DNA of 64,000 nt from a virus, in the IMG/VR virus record IMGVR_UViG_3300037047_000121. One strand, written 5' to 3'. Of the stretch, positions 19,694-52,596 are shown piece after piece (positions within the stretch are counted from its first letter, which is position 1; every line of letters starts with the position of its first letter). The position numbers and the translations under genes are program-made. The notes beneath the pieces are model-generated. The model was not told the DNA's origin. It did no database searches and worked only from the letters and a program-made list of their open reading frames with translations.

Positions 19694-20326
19694 ATGATCG
19701 TTATCACCCTTGCCCGGAAACCCCTCGCGGAGTCCACTGTCGCTCGCAATGTTCTGCACTATGGGACTGGCTCCCTCAACATCGAGGCCAGCAGGATCGG
19801 CGCCCCGTTCCTGTCCGCCGGGGGGAACAATTTTGAGGCATGGCGAGCGGGTGAGAGTCGCGCAGACCGGCCAGCACAACACGGGACGACAACCTCGAAA
19901 GTCCCGAGCGGCCGTTGGCCGACGAATTTCATCCTCGAACATTTCCCGGGGTGCCGCTGCCAAGGCTTGAAACGAGTCCCTGCCAATCAGTCCACCAGAA
20001 TCGGGTCCGGCAAGGGCTCTGCCGAGACGAGTGGGCACATCTTTGGTCATTTCGGGGGGACAGTGAAACCGTCAACCGCGGGGCCAGACGGGCGCGAAAC
20101 GGTCGAAAACTGGATCTGCGCGCCGGGGTGTCCAGTCGCTCAACTGGACGAAGAGTCGATTGCTGGCGGAATGCACGGGGCTGGAACGAAAAGGGAACCC
20201 GGGCTCTCCGTCCAGACAAACGATGGATGCCTCTTCGGTCTGAGCAACTACGAGGGCAACGGGGTACGGTTCGGAGACGCCGGAGGCGCCTCTCGGTTTT
20301 TCAAGCAGTTCCAGTCATGCAAGTGA
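19694..20326 (+). CDS. member 1 of tandem triplicated protein family (210 aa)
   Basis: shared N-terminus MIVITLARKPL..NVL.YGTG.LNI, central RWPTNFILEH, C-terminal AARFFKQ. Confidence 0.6.
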   Translation: MIVITLARKPLAESTVARNVLHYGTGSLNIEASRIGAPFLSAGGNNFEAWRAGESRADRPAQHGTTTSKVPSGRWPTNFILEHFPGCRCQGLKRVPANQSTRIGSGKGSAETSGHIFGHFGGTVKPSTAGPDGRETVENWICAPGCPVAQLDEESIAGGMHGAGTKREPGLSVQTNDGCLFGLSNYEGNGVRFGDAGGASRFFKQFQSCK

Positions 20327-20796
20327 TCACCGTTGCGAGAAAACCGATCGACCAACCGACGATCACCGAAAATGTTCTACACTGGAACACAGGCGCCTTG
20401 AACATCGACGGATGTCGTGTCCCCTGTGAAGGTGGAAGCCCTACCGCCCGCATGAGAGAGAAACTCAACCCAGTAGACAACCTGAGCTATGGGAAAAGGG
20501 GGACGTTCCGAGCAACCTATCAAGTCCCGAAACCCGGCGAGACGCTCGGCAGGTTCCCATCCAATTTCATCCTTGAGCACACAGCGGATTGCACACCGGA
20601 GGTCTGTAGTTCGGAGTGCCCGGTGTTCGCTCTGGGGGTCCAGAGCGGAGTCACTCAATCTGTCGTGACAGAGAAAAATGGCGACAACTTGCCTGGGGTG
20701 ACGTATACACTTGGGAACAGGAACAACATCCGAGTAACCGGGTTCCTCGACAAAGGAACTGCCGCGCGGTTTTTCAAACAGGTGAGAAGAGACTGA
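20326..20796 (+). CDS. member 2 of tandem triplicated protein family (156 aa)
   Basis: ATG overlapping upstream stop; same three motifs. Confidence 0.6.
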   Translation: MTVARKPIDQPTITENVLHWNTGALNIDGCRVPCEGGSPTARMREKLNPVDNLSYGKRGTFRATYQVPKPGETLGRFPSNFILEHTADCTPEVCSSECPVFALGVQSGVTQSVVTEKNGDNLPGVTYTLGNRNNIRVTGFLDKGTAARFFKQVRRD

Positions 20797-20799
20797 GCC

Positions 20800-21045
20800 A
20801 TGCCCTTCTACGACTACCAGTGTCAAAAGTGTGGTCATATCTTCGAGGTCTTCCAACACATGGACGACCCCGACCCCCGATGCCCAAGCACCGGCGACAT
20901 CCACGTCCCGGACTGGGATTTTGAGCAAGAGGGTGAGCCGCCCGTGTGCGGCGGACACAGTAGACGGCTCATCTCCCAGACGAACTTCGTTCTGAAGGGC
21001 GACGGGTGGGCTGCTGACGGATACTCCTCCGGAGGCAAACGATGA
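20800..21045 (+). CDS. FmdB-family zinc-ribbon protein
   Basis: N-terminal MPFYDYQCQKCGHIFE matches the FmdB zinc-ribbon signature. Confidence 0.6.
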   Translation: MPFYDYQCQKCGHIFEVFQHMDDPDPRCPSTGDIHVPDWDFEQEGEPPVCGGHSRRLISQTNFVLKGDGWAADGYSSGGKR

Positions 21046-21665
21046 TCGTCATCACAATGGCCCGAAAACCACTCTCAGAGCCTACCGTCGCAGCGAACGT
21101 GACCCTATATGGTACTGGTGCCCTGAACATCGACGGATGTCGGGTCGGTACAAACCCCGGCTACAGCTACCATGCCGATCGGAATGGCACCACTTTCCAC
21201 GGTGAGGTCGGAGATCGGAAATTTCAGTCGGCTGAGAAACGGGGATCGGAACTCATCCAGTCAACCAAAGGTCGTTGGCCTGCCAATTTCATCCTCGAAC
21301 ATCTTCCCGTTTGCATTTTTCTCGGCACACAAGCGACGCCCGGCTACTCCATCAATCGATGGTCAGATGGAATGAAACCATTTGGGGGTGGCGCAGGACA
21401 TACCTACACCCAGGACACACAGGCAAATCTATCGAGTGAGATGTGGGATTGTACCCCCGGTTGTCCTGTGTCAGATCTGGATGCTCAAAGCGGGGATCGG
21501 GTAGCGGGGGGCGCCAGGAAACCAATACACGGGCCTGCTGGTCAGATTTTCATGCACGGTGGGCCTTGTGAGTCCTACGCGGATCAGGGGACGGCGGCAC
21601 GGTTCTTCACACAGGTCAACCGAAAAACATATCGGAGTGCTCCTCCACCGCCAGAAGGCACGTAG
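21042..21665 (+). CDS. member 3 of tandem triplicated protein family (207 aa)
   Basis: ATGA overlap; same three motifs. Confidence 0.6.
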   Translation: MIVITMARKPLSEPTVAANVTLYGTGALNIDGCRVGTNPGYSYHADRNGTTFHGEVGDRKFQSAEKRGSELIQSTKGRWPANFILEHLPVCIFLGTQATPGYSINRWSDGMKPFGGGAGHTYTQDTQANLSSEMWDCTPGCPVSDLDAQSGDRVAGGARKPIHGPAGQIFMHGGPCESYADQGTAARFFTQVNRKTYRSAPPPPEGT

Positions 21666-22516: not shown

Positions 22517-22963
22517 TCAGGAAATTTTTAGGAACCAACCCTCAGTCACGACTCCGGGCTTGAGGGTTCGTCGCTCCCCGTCCCTGTGGGCAACGTAGAG
22601 GTCGAAATCCCGAAGGTGGTAGTGGCTGCTGTTGAGGGAACGGACACCGATCAAACCCGCCTTGACCCGTTTCCCGAGCCTCAGCGCCTGAGATTCCGAG
22701 AGCCGCCCCTCAAGCTCAACCGCCCACGACCGATTCCGGCGGAAAATGAACACCTTGGGCTCACCTATCAGCCCCAGCACCTCGGGTTTCAAGTACTCCC
22801 GGGCGTTGCGGTACTCCTCTAGCTCACCCAATTCCGTTGCCAAAGCCTGGACCGGGCTGACAACTACCTCATCCGGCTCCGGCACGTCAAAAAAGTCGAA
22901 GCCCGGCGGAAAACCACCGGAATTCAGGTAACGCTGTGCCAGTTTGCGACTTGCATCCGTCAT
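22517..22963 (-). CDS. hypothetical protein (148 aa)
   Basis: ATGA overlap with stop of metalloprotease-like gene; the listed 200-aa ORF N-terminus is overlap artefact. Confidence 0.5.
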   Translation of the reverse strand: MTDASRKLAQRYLNSGGFPPGFDFFDVPEPDEVVVSPVQALATELGELEEYRNAREYLKPEVLGLIGEPKVFIFRRNRSWAVELEGRLSESQALRLGKRVKAGLIGVRSLNSSHYHLRDFDLYVAHRDGERRTLKPGVVTEGWFLKIS

Positions 22964-24981
22964 GGAAGGCTCTCGAACATCCCCTTGATGTGGCCGAGCA
23001 CGTTCGGGATAGACATGTGTGCAATCAGCGAGAGCGGGATGGTCTTCCACTCCAGTTTGGTGTCCGTTTCTGGATCCAACCAGATAAACATGATAGAGCC
23101 ATCGCGCGTCATGCTGCACTCTAGTTTATACGCTAGATCGTGGAACGTCGCCACAAACCCACTGGCGAATTCCTCCGTCACGAACGACGTGTGCTGTTCT
23201 TTCGCAAACAGTGACACGACCTTCAACAGATAGGCTCGCACGAAACCCATCAGGGTCGGATCCCCGACCTCCGCCATCAAAGCTGCCCTCACGTACCGTT
23301 GTGCAACCCTGGAAACCGTCTTCATGTCGCGCTCCTGTCCCAAACCGTTGAGCGATGCCACTTTCGGATGGCCATAAAGGGCTTTTTCCTTCGCCCCCAG
23401 AGCCCCGATATCCCGCTTGTACCAGCCGTCCCCCTCCCACACGAGATCCTTGCCCTGGAGAACGCGTCTGACCACTTCCTCGTCCACGATGCGACGAACC
23501 CCGGCACCCTCAATGATCTGAGTCGGCTTACCAGAAGCCTCCATGTACCAACCGGGCTTGCGCAACAGGGAGACCGCCTGTTCAACTACCGCACGCTTGG
23601 CCTGAGACGACCCGTCACTACCCATCAGCCCTAGTTTGTTACCAAATCGCGTTCGCTTGTAGGCCAAGAAAGCATCGATGCTGTTGTCTCCGTCGATGTC
23701 ATTGAGCCAGAAGATGTCGTACTTGGTCAACATCTCGGAGAGACTGCCGACGTGTGTCCCGATGGCACCATAAGAGGTGTGGTAAATGTCCCACATCTCT
23801 TGCTGCTGGTCGATGTCGAGATCCCGCGGAAAACCCTCTACCCAGGTCGCCCGAGGAAGATTGACCCGAGCTAGAACGGAACGCAGTGACTCCATCTGGT
23901 CTCTGGTCATGTCGTTTCCCATCACCAAATAGGCCATCGCTTCCGCAAACCCCTCCGCTGGATGCTTCGTGCCGTAATCGGAAACGGCGGGGACACGCCC
24001 CGAAGTCAGCCAGTCCGAAAATCGAGCCCTCTCTGGTTCTCGCATCTCTTTGAACCAGTACCGATGTGCCATCTCATGGGTAATCACCTCCGGAGTACTC
24101 TTGTCCGGATACATATAGACGTAGATGCGATCCTTCGATATATCGTATCGAGCCGCGACCCCTAATCCAGGACCATACTGATTTACCCCCGCCAAACTCT
24201 TAGGCTTGACGAAGATCTCACCCCGCCAGACTTGACCCAAACCCTTTTGTCGCAGCCGATGATAAGCCTCCTTGAAGGCTCGGGTGTACCAGTCTACGAG
24301 CTTGGGTTTGACCTCTGGGTCCTCTATGATGACCTTCACGCCGAACAGGTCGAACTCAGTGTCGATCTCCTCCAGGGCTGGCGGATCCAACTGCACAACC
24401 TTCTCCGCTTCCTGGTAAAGAAAACTCAGCAGATCGTCAAATGGTTTGACCAGTTTTTTCAGATCCTTGCGAAATCCGGACTTCAGGTACTCCTCCGACT
24501 TTTTCTGAGCCTCTAACCACCGTCGTCCGATCCTCTCTAGTGCCGGATATTTTTGGAACAGCGCCTCGTAGTACTGATCATTCGTAGACACATGTGACAA
24601 CTCATCTTCACTCAGGAAAGGAGCTTTCCCTGTTGCCTTTTCGACATCCCGCGCTTTGTCCTGATATTCGCCCAGATAAAACCGAGAGTCTCCTTCAACC
24701 CCAGAGGATCTAAACTCGAACCACTGGACCTTTTTCTCTACAGCTGATAGCAGATCAAGAAACTTCTTGCCCTCATCTGACCACCACTCATGCACATACA
24801 CCCCTTGGTGATGAAACTGAACCTGCTCCCGCAATCGAGACAAAAACACCCGAAACTGTTTCAGGATTGAGTCGTATTGGAGAGCACTTTGGGGCTTGGC
24901 ATTTTGGATCAGATGCATCCACCCACGTCGGATCCCATCAAGCCACTGACGGTCTAGCAGTTTTGCTTGCTTTCTAGTCAT
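22960..24981 (-). CDS. HEXXH zinc-metalloprotease-like protein (673 aa)
   Basis: VITHEMAHRYWF zincin motif; operonic with ligase gene. Confidence 0.65.
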   Translation of the reverse strand: MTRKQAKLLDRQWLDGIRRGWMHLIQNAKPQSALQYDSILKQFRVFLSRLREQVQFHHQGVYVHEWWSDEGKKFLDLLSAVEKKVQWFEFRSSGVEGDSRFYLGEYQDKARDVEKATGKAPFLSEDELSHVSTNDQYYEALFQKYPALERIGRRWLEAQKKSEEYLKSGFRKDLKKLVKPFDDLLSFLYQEAEKVVQLDPPALEEIDTEFDLFGVKVIIEDPEVKPKLVDWYTRAFKEAYHRLRQKGLGQVWRGEIFVKPKSLAGVNQYGPGLGVAARYDISKDRIYVYMYPDKSTPEVITHEMAHRYWFKEMREPERARFSDWLTSGRVPAVSDYGTKHPAEGFAEAMAYLVMGNDMTRDQMESLRSVLARVNLPRATWVEGFPRDLDIDQQQEMWDIYHTSYGAIGTHVGSLSEMLTKYDIFWLNDIDGDNSIDAFLAYKRTRFGNKLGLMGSDGSSQAKRAVVEQAVSLLRKPGWYMEASGKPTQIIEGAGVRRIVDEEVVRRVLQGKDLVWEGDGWYKRDIGALGAKEKALYGHPKVASLNGLGQERDMKTVSRVAQRYVRAALMAEVGDPTLMGFVRAYLLKVVSLFAKEQHTSFVTEEFASGFVATFHDLAYKLECSMTRDGSIMFIWLDPETDTKLEWKTIPLSLIAHMSIPNVLGHIKGMFESLP

Positions 24982-26636
24982 GTCCGGTTCCCGAAGGATG
25001 CCAAATATTTGTGAGCCACCCGTTTGCGGATGTTCTTGATCCCCCGCAGTTCGGGATGCACCCCACCCCAGAGGGACTCCTCGGAGATGGCCTTCTGGAA
25101 TTCCAGATTGATGAACTTGCCAAACACGCCAGTACGCAAGTTCTTGACGACGATGCCCTCAGCCGTCCCGGCTCCGAACGAGGAAAACCGATCCGCGAGC
25201 TTCGGCAGATCCTCGGGGGCCACCGTCCCCTTGAACACTAGCGGAACGAGCGGCGCACCTACCATCTGGCACACGGCCTCTTTCTCACCCCGAGTCAGCC
25301 ACTTGCCGGTACCCTGCCCCTGCCGATACGGAGGACGATCCTCACCCTCCATGATCTCGTACACAACCGTCATGTCCGGCCAACCGGACTCCGAGTAGGG
25401 GACGTTATCATAAGACACCGTGTGCTGGATCCGAAGGGACTCGCAAAAGAAGGTGTATCCGCCGTACAAGATGACCACCGGATGGCCATCGACCTTCTCC
25501 TCGATGACCACCTCACCCTTGAACAAACGCTCCATCTCGGAGTCCTTCAGGTAATCTTTACCCCGAATCCTCAACCCGTACCGATCAATGTCAGCATTCC
25601 CAACAACAACAGTCTCCTGTTTCGTTCGGGGGTCTACATTCCGAGCGATCGGAATCCGCCGGACACCCGTAATCTGCTTGTAACCACGAACGAAGTCGAT
25701 GACCTCGAACGGTTCCCCAGCGTCCACGGCCGTCCTGACGGAGCCAAACCGATGAGCGAAACTGATCTCCATCTCGTTGTCTTTCCGACCGGCCCAGAAA
25801 AGTTTGTACTTGCGAGGAAGACTCTCCTCTAGGAACTCAAGCACCTCGCGGTAAGCGCCCTCCTCGTCGGGACGAGCCGAGAACTGCATCATCCCCGTGC
25901 GACTCACCCAGATCTGGTCCCGAGAGTCCAGTTCCGCCGGGATCCCCAAGTCATCGAGCTTCTTGAGCAGCATCTGCAACCTCTCAAGACGCTCCAGTTC
26001 ATCGTGCATCTTGCGACGCAAGGCTGGATCATCCTCTTTCTGAGCCCTCCAGTCGAGTTCCAGGATGCGGTGCTTGAGGCTTGCCATGTTTGCATACCTG
26101 TTGCTGCCTGTATCAACGACCCAGGCTTGATCCGAGTCAAACAGAACGATCTCGTCGATCCGACTACCCTTCGACACGATGCTGCCAAACCCCCGCGCAT
26201 ACCGAGCACCCGGCGACTCTTTCCGAAGATGATCCGCCAGCAACTCCAACGCTGTCGATTTGTTATCCACCCGACGAACCCCCTTCGACTCCAGTAGCTT
26301 CGGGATCCGGTTCAACTCTTTGGCGAACGCTTTCAGCCCACTCCGCCACTCGTCCGGAGCCATCGCAGTCCGAGTCAAAAGATGCCCATGCTCAGCTAAT
26401 CCAGCCTTGCACACATACCATGGGTCACCAGACACTGGATCATCCCGATCCAAAGCAGGGGTGAGAGAACAATGCACCCACACTGGTGCCCCACCCTTGA
26501 ATTCATACCCCAGCATCTCAACCCGCACGTACCCTCGATCCCTCCACTCAGGCTCAGAGCCAAACGTAGATGCCCACCTCTGAACCAAACGATAAAAAGC
26601 ATCGAGCGCTTTTTGCTTTGTAACACCAAGTCCCAT
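24978..26636 (-). CDS. ATP-dependent RNA/DNA ligase-family nucleotidyltransferase with N-terminal extension
   Basis: motif I EEKVDGHPV (KxDG), motif IV AEGIVVKN, downstream GKFIN; 552 aa. Confidence 0.65.
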   Translation of the reverse strand: MGLGVTKQKALDAFYRLVQRWASTFGSEPEWRDRGYVRVEMLGYEFKGGAPVWVHCSLTPALDRDDPVSGDPWYVCKAGLAEHGHLLTRTAMAPDEWRSGLKAFAKELNRIPKLLESKGVRRVDNKSTALELLADHLRKESPGARYARGFGSIVSKGSRIDEIVLFDSDQAWVVDTGSNRYANMASLKHRILELDWRAQKEDDPALRRKMHDELERLERLQMLLKKLDDLGIPAELDSRDQIWVSRTGMMQFSARPDEEGAYREVLEFLEESLPRKYKLFWAGRKDNEMEISFAHRFGSVRTAVDAGEPFEVIDFVRGYKQITGVRRIPIARNVDPRTKQETVVVGNADIDRYGLRIRGKDYLKDSEMERLFKGEVVIEEKVDGHPVVILYGGYTFFCESLRIQHTVSYDNVPYSESGWPDMTVVYEIMEGEDRPPYRQGQGTGKWLTRGEKEAVCQMVGAPLVPLVFKGTVAPEDLPKLADRFSSFGAGTAEGIVVKNLRTGVFGKFINLEFQKAISEESLWGGVHPELRGIKNIRKRVAHKYLASFGNRT

Positions 26637-26804
26637 AACACACCTCCAAAAAGACGCCTACCCACTACCCACTATCACCTTTCTACCGTATCAGCCGAAA
26701 CTCAGCCGAACCCAATACTTGATTTTCTCCAGCATTTGCGGTATTTCTCTCCCCTGGAGGCACGACACCCCCCGAGAATTCCCCCTCACCCATAGGACAT
26801 CACC

Positions 26805-27314
26805 ATGACGGTAGCAGTAGCCATCCGAGACCCAGAGTCCAAGACCTCCCTGTTGGCCTCCGACCGCCGTACCACCGATGGTTCCCTTATCTGTCCCCCA
26901 TGCAACAAAATTCAGCACTCAGACTTCGCAGCTTGGACAGGAGCCGGGGACTCAGCCGACGTGCTCAAAGCACTCGACATCCTAAGCCAGCATGACCCGA
27001 TCACGTCCGATGCCAAAGCGAAAGAGACCAGCCAAGCCCTCTCCGAGATCGACTCAGATGGGATGGAACTCCTCTATGTCACCCCTACCGATATCTGGTA
27101 TTTCGACAGCGACGGAGTCTACCAAAAACTCATCTCCAACTGCGTAGCCATCGGTGACGGACTCGAATCCGCCCTCGCCATCCTATACGACCATGAATAT
27201 GACATGCCCCCTATAGCCCGAGCCATCCGAGCACTCGAAATCGCCAGCCGCATTTCTAACACATGCGGAGACGGCTACGACCTCGTAACACTTCCCAAAA
27301 ACAAGACCGTTTGA
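26805..27314 (+). CDS. HslV/proteasome-like Ntn-hydrolase peptidase
   Basis: N-terminal MT-VAVAI...DRRTTDG and ISNCVAIGDG / CGDGYD segments align with HslV; Thr at position 2. Confidence 0.6.
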   Translation: MTVAVAIRDPESKTSLLASDRRTTDGSLICPPCNKIQHSDFAAWTGAGDSADVLKALDILSQHDPITSDAKAKETSQALSEIDSDGMELLYVTPTDIWYFDSDGVYQKLISNCVAIGDGLESALAILYDHEYDMPPIARAIRALEIASRISNTCGDGYDLVTLPKNKTV

Positions 27315-28626: not shown

Positions 28627-29499
28627 ATGGAGCAAATACTCTACTCACGGTCGGATGATGGGTTGTTGCCTGTACGGATCCGGGAGGAGTCGGGACAGCG
28701 GAGGTATAGCTTGGAGGGGCCTGGTGGGGTGGTGGTGTATCCCTCGGCTCGGCAGTTGTTGTGTGCGCTTACGGGGCACCCTGAGGCGCGGCATTGGCCG
28801 TTTGATCGGTATTTCCGGCAGGGTCGGTATGCACCGAAGGGTGTGAGTGCTGACTTTCCGTTGTTGGAGATGGTGGGTCCTGGTGGTTGGGCGCTGGGTC
28901 GGCCGGAGGTTTTGGCGACGAGTGGTGGTCCTCGGTGGATTCGTCGGGACTCGTTGGGGATCGACCTTCAGGCTCGGGGCAAAGAGGTTGCGAAGCTGTT
29001 GTTTCATGGTTTTGGGTCGATGATTCACTCTGCTGGGTATGACCCGGATGATGTTCTGCAGGAGGTGTACAAGGGGATTCTGATTCGGAACTCGGGGTCG
29101 TGCCCATTTGATGCTCGCAAGGCGTCGTTTGGTCACTATGTCCACATGGTGTGTCGGTGCGTACTGGCGAACTATCACCGGAAGAGTCAGCGGACACGCT
29201 CTATGGAGCAGTCTGGCATCCCTGGCTGGGATGAGAATGGCGACAAGGGGATGATAGACGCGGGTGAGACGGGTGAGCTAGTGGCTGCTGCAGGTTTGGA
29301 GGACGAAGCTGTACTGGAAGACTTCATGTCGGCCTTGGAGGATTCCCCCTTGCGGGGCATGGCTCTCAGGGTCTTGCCGTTGGTTCGGGATGGGTATGAG
29401 AGATCTGAGATTGCCGCTCAGCTTGGGGTGGCGAAGCCTACGGTCTCACGGGCGCTGACGTACATCCGGGATCAGTTCCGGCGGTGGTATGCGAACTAG
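28627..29499 (+). CDS. phage-encoded sigma-70-family (ECF-like) sigma factor
   Basis: region-2-like FGHYVHMVCRCVLANYHRK and region-4 HTH ERSEIAAQLGVAKPTVSRALTYIRDQFRRW. Confidence 0.55.
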   Translation: MEQILYSRSDDGLLPVRIREESGQRRYSLEGPGGVVVYPSARQLLCALTGHPEARHWPFDRYFRQGRYAPKGVSADFPLLEMVGPGGWALGRPEVLATSGGPRWIRRDSLGIDLQARGKEVAKLLFHGFGSMIHSAGYDPDDVLQEVYKGILIRNSGSCPFDARKASFGHYVHMVCRCVLANYHRKSQRTRSMEQSGIPGWDENGDKGMIDAGETGELVAAAGLEDEAVLEDFMSALEDSPLRGMALRVLPLVRDGYERSEIAAQLGVAKPTVSRALTYIRDQFRRWYAN

Positions 29500-41100: not shown

Positions 41101-41131
41101 GATCTACTCTGTCCGGGTTTGAGATGATCCC
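41101..41131 (-). promoter_or_regulatory. phage promoter-like motif, minus-direction half of divergent pair
   Basis: ATCTACTC-N12-AGATGATCCC. Confidence 0.5.
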
Positions 41132-51840: not shown

Positions 51841-52596
51841 ATGAAATTGAGGCTAGGGGATTTCGGTTATCTCCAGATGTGGTTCGGATCACACCAGAGC
51901 ATCACTCCTCATCTGGTAGACATCCGGCTTATGCTCTATTGGCCGTATCGGGTAGTCCGTAAATTCCATCTCGGGGAAAAAGGCATCTACCTGAACCCCG
52001 GAGAAATTCTGGGTCGTCTGCCCAATGGGGACTTGCACTACGAAAGGTTTGTGCTGGAGAACAGGTGGCTCCAGGGTGCCCTGGCTGACGGTTTGGTTGA
52101 GCCCCTGTACCGTGTGCCGAGCCGAAAAAACTTGACCTGGGGTGCTTTTCGTGGGTGGGTGCGGCGTTGGCCCAGCATCAAAAAGCAGAGCACCCCGAAT
52201 ACCAACTGGCCATCGTCCACACGTTCCCTCGAGGAGCGCAACGAAACCCAGAAAGATCCTGTCCCGGATGCGTACCCATACACACCAGGGACGGATTCTG
52301 GGGACGCGACGAGGATTTATTTCGGGGGGGCGATCTGCGCTGAACCGGACCCGCCAGTGCTGCACGAGCTACTGGAAAAGATGCGGGAAAACCCCGAGGA
52401 GTTCTCGCCTGATCCCAGACATGGGTACCCGGACTATTTCAACTGGACGGTCTTGTCGAACGACTACTGGATGCGGAAACAGCCAGTAGCGGAGTCCGAG
52501 GATGAGACGGGGATGGAGCTTGAGGTAGGTCCATTCGCAGCGGAGTGTCCGGAACCTCCTCCGGTTCCGGACATTACCTCTCCGGAGAGTGCTTAG
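51841..52596 (+). CDS. hypothetical protein (251 aa)
   Basis: ATG with CAGGAGGATAGG RBS; convergent with the MVP gene. Confidence 0.55.
   Translation: MKLRLGDFGYLQMWFGSHQSITPHLVDIRLMLYWPYRVVRKFHLGEKGIYLNPGEILGRLPNGDLHYERFVLENRWLQGALADGLVEPLYRVPSRKNLTWGAFRGWVRRWPSIKKQSTPNTNWPSSTRSLEERNETQKDPVPDAYPYTPGTDSGDATRIYFGGAICAEPDPPVLHELLEKMRENPEEFSPDPRHGYPDYFNWTVLSNDYWMRKQPVAESEDETGMELEVGPFAAECPEPPPVPDITSPESA

Follow-up and report, generated by a model that had tools for sequence, protein, structure and literature searches.

A phage operon pairing a compact RNA-ligase-type protein with a zincin–GNAT protein, and a peptide motif recurring at gene ends and domain junctions

We analysed a 64-kb stretch of viral DNA (64,000 nucleotides of IMG/VR virus record IMGVR_UViG_3300037047_000121, hereafter the window, part of a 137,889-bp source contig) and concentrated on a three-gene operon read from its minus strand, which encodes a putative RNA ligase, a multidomain HEXXH protein and an orphan protein of 148 aa. 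The window is DNA of a large uncultivated phage. It carries the gene of a virion structural protein (58019..59245; phrog_1645, E 4.5e-81) with distant relatives in huge uncultured phages and cyanomyoviruses. Also encoded in the window are an RNase combining an RNB domain with a double-stranded RNA-binding domain, PhoH, a protein resembling MVP and an ECF-sigma-like protein. The genes of the operon, in order of translation, are:

24978..26636, minus strand: ligase gene, 552 aa, an open reading frame (ORF) with an alternative start at M92 (nt 26363)
22960..24981, minus strand: HEXXH multidomain gene, 673 aa (ORF; AlphaFold2 model), overlapping the ligase gene by ATGA
22517..22963, minus strand: orphan gene, 148 aa counted from its ATG, overlapping the HEXXH gene by ATGA

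The reading frames are those given in an initial annotation made from the letters of this DNA, and the motifs it had named, EEKVDGHPV and AEGIVVKN in the ligase and VITHEMAHRYWF (HEMAH, nt 24064-24078) in the HEXXH protein, were all located in the sequence. Its proposal that the three genes are translationally coupled is borne out by the ATGA stop/start overlap found at both junctions: the HEXXH protein and the 148-aa orphan are co-translated with the ligase. The codon-position GC of the ligase and HEXXH ORFs is coding-like. Single-sequence searches of PDB, NCBIfam and PHROGs returned no match for any of the three proteins. The 148-aa protein belongs to no family in Pfam, NCBIfam or PHROGs, and has no homologue in 50,697 phage records (tblastn), in IMG/VR or in the related loci.

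The initial annotation had assigned the 552-aa protein to the ATP-dependent RNA ligases, and our searches agree with this over a DNA ligase or a capping enzyme. Its sole Pfam match was PF09414 RNA_ligase (residues 394-502; 34.1 bits, above the cutoff of 27), a model that scores 35-88 bits in its relatives, and no Pfam DNA-ligase or capping-enzyme model was matched at E<=1. A profile search of the PDB found 3qwu (1.3e-11), the Palaeococcus pacificus RNA ligase 8uce (6.7e-9) and Pab1020 (2e-8), and more weakly Naegleria Rnl5 (NgrRnl; 2.4e-5), MthRnl (1.4e-4) and T4 Rnl2 (0.012). The domain is therefore a nucleotidyltransferase of the RNA-ligase type, with the Rnl3 and Rnl5 ligases as its closest groups. 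The features of the protein are:

25716..26636, minus strand: orphan N-terminal region, residues 1-307, with the sequence RLVQRWA (residues 16-22, nt 26571-26591), which resembles the peptide tag described below
25023..25715, minus strand: compact RNA-ligase nucleotidyltransferase domain, residues 308-538, from PF09414, invariant columns and PDB profile matches
25479-25502, minus strand: motif I, EEKVDGHP, with K381 at 25494-25496
25434-25457, minus strand: motif III, YTFFCESL
25140-25163, minus strand: motif IV, AEGIVVKN
25107-25124, minus strand: motif V, FGKFIN

Residues E380, K381, D383, G384, E399, E493, G494, K498 and K507 were invariant in alignments A1 and A2, and the same motifs are present in Pab1020, 3qwu and 8uce. 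An alignment of 36 sequences showed as invariant the EEKxDG of motif I, the glutamate of motif III, the EGxxxK of motif IV and the lysine of motif V, with the position of motif IIIa kept as an aromatic-D pair. K381 and E399 are separated by only 18 residues, a gap of ~34-43 columns relative to the PDB ligases. This ~40-aa segment between motifs I and III, which we take to carry motif Ia, is deleted in the clade of the window protein and in mini relatives of ~185 aa, and present in all solved relatives as well as in the relatives P0064, P0081, P0088, P0094 and P0101 (P0001-P0166 denote homologous proteins of the ligase and HEXXH families, and L001-L089 the related loci). Upstream of the nucleotidyltransferase motifs lies a conserved block of the clade's own (YKxxxxxRRIP...GKxY, with R327 and K360); no OB or DNA-binding domain was found after the nucleotidyltransferase domain.

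The N-terminal extension of about 300 aa noted at the outset exists and has no detected relatives, since searches of 5.8 billion proteins, the phage database and the fetched loci retrieved nothing but the protein itself. A kinase or phosphatase identity, for which a test had been suggested, was rejected: the N-terminal 310 aa contain no Walker A, DxDxT, paired HxT or calcineurin motif and match no family. The AlphaFold2 model of the full ligase, built from 17 sequences, was poor (predicted local distance difference test, pLDDT, 52.8), the N-terminal region being of low confidence, and a Foldseek search with it placed Rnl3 on top at a non-significant E of 0.028. The true start of the gene is ambiguous between 26636 and 26363, because a strong Shine-Dalgarno sequence (GGAGG, 8 nt before the ATG at 26636) conflicts with a drop in third-position GC over codons 1-91 (26364-26636, minus strand; 0.47 vs 0.71 for the remainder) and with the JGI call P0001, which begins at M92.

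The relatives of the ligase form what appears, from these searches, to be a compact, small and virus-only clade. A whole-database search found 18 relatives sharing the C-terminal 230-250 aa at 60-77% identity, and 203 proteins were collected when 1.84 billion cluster representatives were searched with a profile, comprising this tight clade and many mini-proteins of ~185 aa. The contigs of the clade are exclusively viral or metagenomic, with a GC content of 0.34-0.71. None of 185,579 species genomes contains the family, and tblastn with the ligase and its N-terminus against the 50,697 phage records gave no match.

The company kept by these relatives is the main argument for a role in RNA repair. 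The ligase domain is fused to a PolyA_pol/CCA-type nucleotidyltransferase in P0002 and P0005, to a 2H phosphoesterase in P0008, to an M78-like HEXXH domain and DUF3072 in P0012, to an Ntn/AAT hydrolase in P0015 and P0016, and to a zincin of the type found in the window in P0018. It also occurs in three giant proteins, P0023 (Ntn, HEXXH, ligase, GNAT and TopoIB), P0025 (ligase, TopoIB, HAD_SAK_1 and HEXXH) and P0026 (TopoIB, carbonic anhydrase and ligase). Elsewhere the same partners are encoded by strings of genes: in L001, HAD_SAK_1+2H+GNAT is followed by PolyA_pol, Ntn+ligase, a 1123-aa protein and TopoIB; L078 has PolyA_pol, ligase, GNAT+2H, an Ntn-like protein and PAP2+TopoIB; and in L089 a ligase and a window-type zincin are followed by a CCA-adding enzyme that has an HD domain. 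The RNA-repair proteins termed 'Swiss Army Knife' reportedly go back to Burroughs and Aravind (2016, NAR). Because CCA-adding/PolyA_pol, 2H and HAD_SAK_1 domains, which add nucleotides or heal ends, recur as fused or adjacent partners, the ligase probably acts in RNA repair, in line with the initial annotation.

The second gene of the operon encodes a protein that we could model better (AlphaFold2, 15 sequences; mean pLDDT 76.8), with fold matches to PPEP/lethal factor, RimI-type GNATs and four-helix bundles. Its parts are:

24397..24981, minus strand: helical N-domain, a four-helix bundle, residues 1-195 (AlphaFold2 model, fold match)
23866..24369, minus strand: zincin metallopeptidase domain, residues ~205-372, including HEMAH (fold match)
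23932-23964, minus strand: candidate third zinc ligand E343 in AEGFAEA, within the zincin domain
23362..23850, minus strand: GNAT-fold domain, residues ~378-540 (fold match; 380-540 very confident in the model)
22963..23289, minus strand: orphan C-terminal domain, residues 565-673, of low pLDDT, whose sole homologue is its own copy

The zincin identity of this protein, already proposed, stands on the HEXXH helix, the downstream glutamate ligand and the zincin fold, and H302, E303, H306 and E343 are kept across the zincin family. Peptidase models of Pfam score below threshold (Peptidase_Mx 15.5 bits and SprT-like 12.1 bits; ATLF, PF07737, 13.4-19.7 bits in relatives). The structural model likewise supports a GNAT fold for residues ~378-540; its beta4-alpha3 loop reads GSDGSSQAKR at the place of the Q/RxxGxG/A motif that binds the pyrophosphate of acetyl-CoA, and no Pfam GNAT model matches the window protein. 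Residues 543-557 form a disordered or low-confidence linker.

In IMG/VR the zincin family was found at 58 loci, most of them on contigs of 100-530 kb and often with paralogues in tandem, and in cellular bins on three metagenome-assembled contigs only (L069-L071; Phycisphaerae, Terrimicrobiaceae and Omnitrophota). These three contigs hint at PVC-group hosts. Two giant proteins placed directly after a portal gene each carry the lethal-factor-like zincin twice, together with PolyA_pol and a eukaryotic-type TopoIB (L015 7817-17110, 3,098 aa; L064 5891-13483, 2,531 aa). GNAT-like domains occur elsewhere with TopoIB+SAP (P0020), with a C39-like peptidase (P0022) and with 2H beside the ligase (L078). 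The GNAT belongs to the RNA-repair set, since it is fused elsewhere to the 2H phosphoesterase that adjoins the ligase.

The initial annotation had regarded the zincin as a dedicated partner in RNA repair and the pairing as unusual. Neither view survived. A ligase lies within 10 kb in 0/58 loci of the zincin family, and 0/7 of the ligase loci examined first have a window-type zincin; these counts rule out that ligase and zincin form an obligate pair. Independent recurrences of the pairing are nevertheless seen in the window, in L089 (a ligase 48% identical, on a contig of GC 0.49) and in the fusion P0018, and the two domains lie far apart within one polypeptide in P0025/L079. In Iyer et al. (2017, PMC5512222), a lethal-factor-related zincin metallopeptidase is the hub domain of the proteins of phages and conjugative elements termed polyvalent, and its presence here, fused to a GNAT, is no oddity. 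The window protein strings together the zincin, the GNAT and two more domains, and its relatives reach 1,359-3,098 aa with PolyA_pol, two metallopeptidase domains, TopoIB, ligase and HAD_SAK. Across the related loci, ligase and zincin are shuffled with a CCA-adding enzyme, 2H and HAD phosphoesterases, GNAT, Ntn peptidases and TopoIB, either in giant proteins or in strings of genes. We therefore read the pairing as joint membership of one shuffled effector set and not as common chemistry.

What unites the three genes of the operon is a short peptide, hereafter the tag, with the consensus (S/A)xRVAxRYL, which is found at the N-termini, the C-termini and the internal domain junctions of the homologues. 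Its copies in the window are:

25002..25022, minus strand: RVAHKYL, C-terminus of the ligase, residues 539-545
23290..23310, minus strand: RVAQRYV, junction of the GNAT and tail of the HEXXH protein, residues 558-564
22925-22945, minus strand: KLAQRYL, 148-aa protein, residues 7-13

When the whole window was read in all six frames, a strict match was present only at these three places, once in each gene of the operon, which rules out that the tag is a general feature of this phage's proteins over the 64 kb. In the ligase and HEXXH families it occurred 29 times, compared with 2.1±1.5 in shuffled sequences (maximum 7 in 500 shuffles), and in the 1,296 ORFs of the 58 zincin loci 36 times compared with 6.8±2.3, with 23/36 copies <=30 residues from a terminus; both counts take in related proteins and hence are not independent events. 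The tag is thus biased towards termini and enriched 5-14-fold over shuffles. It flanks unrelated folds, among them the ligase, Ntn, PolyA_pol, TopoIB, 2H/GNAT and the orphan 148-aa protein, and tagged examples beyond the window include P0023, P0025, P0026, L001, L015 and L078. In L001 the enzymes carry it and the adjacent upstream genes, including terminase and portal, do not. The three window copies are encoded by different codons, and therefore selection acts on the peptide; the same difference excludes a recombination site at the DNA level. We found no earlier description of such a junction or terminal tag, or of the portal-adjacent synteny described below, in the literature searched.

Canonical zincin proteins have a single N-terminus (RVARRYLVGEILAKDWL...RRGW in P0166), with which the C-terminal tag of the ligase and the first residues of the HEXXH protein together align. 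By this alignment, the arrangement in the window looks like a fusion split at the tag. In the canonical proteins of the family the tag forms the start of helix 1 of the N-domain.

In five loci (L001/L002, L003/L072, L015, L064 and L079) the portal gene is followed immediately downstream by the tagged cassette, and in L001 and L015 the terminase gene is upstream as well. A position next to the portal is the usual site of head-associated or ejected proteins and fits the logic of polyvalent proteins. For the window itself packaging would be an extrapolation, because no homologue of the portal of the related loci was found in it.

The initial annotation had further suggested that the operon is expressed early from host-type promoters and had pointed to the absence of a repeated phage motif from it. 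The divergent intergenic region upstream of the operon, its sole candidate promoter region, and the repeated motif are placed as follows:

26637..26804, either strand: intergenic region, without a sigma-70-like site and without a copy of the repeated motif
2164, 5445, 32338, 32952, 33982, 35879, 39365, 41104/41132, 42233, 42754, 44333, 45043 and 62087, both strands: copies of CTACTC-N13-RATGATCCC

This bipartite DNA motif has 14 copies in the window, where 0 are expected; they lie on both strands and cluster at 32-45 kb, and the pair at 41104/41132 is arranged back-to-back. The motif could serve as a promoter or regulatory site specific to the phage, perhaps one connected with the ECF-sigma-like gene at 28627..29499. 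The motif is indeed missing from the operon; no meaning specific to the operon can be read from this, because both strands of the entire 5.5-32.3 kb stretch lack it. Sigma-70-like sites were not commoner than in shuffled sequence. Early expression from host-type promoters was thus not upheld. Since related phages place the cassette co-oriented and directly behind the terminase and portal genes, the comparison would point to late expression and packaging instead.

These results indicate that the operon is a real, coherent module in which a new compact RNA ligase clade takes part in a variant of the polyvalent-protein theme. The reading that we favour, with a probability of about 0.55, is that of a split polyvalent effector cassette containing an RNA-repair ligase, with the tag as a targeting or processing signal. 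K381 would be adenylylated and AMP passed to a 5'-phosphate RNA end, after which a break with 3'-OH and 5'-PO4 ends would be sealed; the likeliest substrates are tRNA or other RNAs of translation that nucleases of host defence have cut. The zincin would act as a hub for processing or as an effector, as is typical of polyvalent proteins, and not as a catalytic partner in ligation. The tag, which is present at every module boundary within a protein or at the end of a gene, may be a shared targeting and/or cleavage signal, comparable to the T4 capsid-targeting sequence. Its role would be to bring the enzymes to one shared place, probably the capsid, from which they would be co-injected with the DNA, and/or to show the zincin where to cut; the zincin is a candidate protease for the tag, and the four-helix bundle possibly its reader. 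Delivery with the DNA is speculative.

Several observations weigh against this reading. The 64 kb of the window yielded no end-healing enzyme, whether Pnkp, 2H, HAD or CCA-adding, so that either such enzymes are encoded in the other half of the contig or the breaks already have 3'-OH/5'-P ends. The operon has no recognisable portal or terminase neighbour; the closest virion gene detected lies 33 kb off, and no MuF or portal fusion was found. The poor model of the ligase and its non-significant fold match count here too, and catalysis may be altered, because the deleted segment between motifs I and III presumably carries motif Ia. The strict tag is present in only ~1/4 of the ORFs of the zincin family. 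Moreover, the L089 lineage has a different shared N-terminal peptide, xVAxELxxIKTLIAG, on consecutive ORFs (95 aa, 122 aa, zincin and CCA-adding enzyme; L089 2442-7124), which may be the form that the tag takes in that lineage; such a deviating pattern would arise if a signal and its reader co-evolved. Going further than the split cassette, the tag could be the address label of an unrecognised sorting or processing system of huge phages. An RNA-repair and nucleic-acid toolkit, proposed to consist of the compact ligase, the CCA-adding enzyme, 2H, HAD and PAP2 phosphoesterases, GNAT and TopoIB, would then enter the capsid and be injected along with the genome. The zincin with its bundle would be the reader or cutter of the tag, and repair of tRNA damaged by the host would precede phage gene expression. 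We offer this extension tentatively, with the odds somewhat against it.

Other explanations assign the genes different tasks. The recurrence of ligase-zincin adjacency or fusion would also be expected of a dedicated, early-expressed anti-defence pair, in which the zincin destroys a host anticodon nuclease or defence protein and the ligase mends the cut tRNA, and polyvalent zincins may be effectors themselves according to PMC5512222. We think this unlikely, since the zincin loci have no ligase within 10 kb and most ligase loci no zincin, both domains combine freely with unrelated enzymes (TopoIB, carbonic anhydrase, C39 peptidase), and there is no promoter evidence for early expression. A doubt of similar size attaches to the tag having no signalling role at all, as a helix cap or linker inherited by domain shuffling, with the three genes as independent accessory genes. 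The motif merely begins helix 1 in canonical zincin proteins and many of its instances are in related proteins; such a linker would not be expected to flank unrelated folds, to favour termini, to be kept as peptide and not as DNA, or to be absent from the upstream genes of the L001 locus.

Two further alternatives concern the chemistry of the ligase itself. That the domain acts on DNA or DNA-RNA junctions together with TopoIB, sealing or processing nicks in phage or host DNA, is quite improbable. TopoIB does share a polypeptide with it in P0023, P0025 and P0026 and a cassette in L001 and L078, and the depositors of two of the best PDB matches titled them 'DNA ligase'. Against this, the 8uc* entries are titled RNA ligase and Pab1020, MthRnl and NgrRnl, which we take to be RNA ligases, are so named by their depositors, the partners (CCA-adding, 2H, HAD_SAK) act on RNA ends, and neither a DNA-ligase or capping model nor a downstream OB or DNA-binding domain was detected. 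The shortened domain might alternatively only adenylylate, modifying a protein or the 5' end of an RNA and joining no strands; the deletion between motifs I and III, filled in the solved ligases and some relatives, speaks for this. We consider it very unlikely, given that all catalytic motifs including IV and V are invariant, that the upstream conserved block with R327 and K360 could replace the missing segment, and that RNA end-healing domains are its consistent company. The split cassette with an RNA-repair ligase accordingly remains the reading we prefer.

Further genes of the window merit a brief description. Divergent from the operon, a 169-aa gene whose product starts MTVAV (26805-27314, plus strand) has a sub-threshold match to Proteasome (PF00227) and no PDB sequence match; its product may be an N-terminal-Thr hydrolase, and with no better match than these it was rejected as a processing protease for the tag. 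At 52593-55211 and 55777-57528 (minus strand) the MVP-like protein (MVP shoulder 6e-21, Vault_3) adjoins the RNase II/R-type RNB protein with its C-terminal double-stranded RNA-binding motif; both are unusual in phages and have no homologues in the related loci. A vault or MVP cage as the destination of the tag is thus unsupported, as no related locus has an MVP homologue. Three tandem paralogues of ~200 aa (19694-20326, ~20323-20796 and 21042-21665, plus strand) share ARKPL...GTGxLNI(D/E)xxR...GRWPxNFILEH...ARFF(K/T)Q, the one tested having no Pfam family, and a Zn-ribbon (PF09723) gene lies among them at 20800-21045. A Pfam screen of 62 window ORFs, taken as a set, also returned an IU_nuc_hydro nucleoside hydrolase, an HD_4 domain (RelA/SpoT-type HD) and an Rv2179c-like 3'-5' exoribonuclease.

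If the tag is a sorting or cleavage signal, it would provide an easy way to find packaged effectors by sequence in the genomes of huge phages and a candidate protease-site pair, and it would explain why a ligase and a 'protease' co-occur without shared chemistry. The predicted minimal RNA ligase of ~230 aa without motif Ia is of possible biotechnological interest.

The module can be set beside several known systems. The Rnl3 ligases (Pyrococcus abyssi Pab1020, Methanobacterium MthRnl, Palaeococcus pacificus Rnl and Aquifex 3qwu) are the best profile matches of the window ligase (E 1e-11 to 1e-4), and motifs I, III, IIIa, IV and V align. The alignment is confined to the nucleotidyltransferase domain (2vug residues 88-252 of 389), whereas the N-terminal, dimerisation and C-terminal domains of Rnl3 are absent; the window clade also differs in the deletion between motifs I and III, in its own upstream block and in being viral and not archaeal. 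Compared with the zincins of anthrax lethal factor and PPEP (MEROPS M34, ATLF), the HEXXH protein is set apart by its sub-threshold Pfam score, its four-helix bundle N-domain and its GNAT. With the T4 capsid-targeting sequence, a short peptide near the N-terminus that is common to otherwise unrelated internal proteins, the tag would share its occurrence on unrelated proteins and, in the related loci, a place beside head genes. Its sequence is different, and it is found also at C-termini and internal domain junctions.

The closest parallel in architecture is with the polyvalent proteins, which, in the passages of PMC5512222 drawn on here, string together disparate enzymes including RimI-like GNATs, 2H and Pol-beta nucleotidyltransferases and are linked to head genes, a linkage that the portal gene provides in the five related loci described above and that the window does not show. 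Those passages do not treat the ligase, TopoIB or the junction motif as components, and state that 2H domains were never observed with RNA ligases. The set found here is, moreover, partly divided into separate genes, with no MuF fusion.

RNA repair as a phage counter-defence is known mainly from T4 Rnl1/Pnkp, made after infection. The likeness to T4 Rnl1/Pnkp and Rnl2 lies in a phage-encoded ATP-dependent RNA ligase, whose relatives travel here with end-healing or nucleotide-adding enzymes. The window ligase itself is only weakly similar to T4 Rnl2, no PF09511-type (Rnl1) model is among its Pfam matches, and no Pnkp-type Pfam family was found among 75 window ORFs; in the relatives healing would fall to 2H, HAD_SAK, PAP2 and CCA-adding domains. 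Unlike the T4 system, window-type genes carry the peptide tag, and those of the relatives sit behind the portal gene. The comparison points to a broader kit, so far from uncultivated phages only, in which a stripped-down ligase has been shuffled into portal-adjacent polyvalent proteins.

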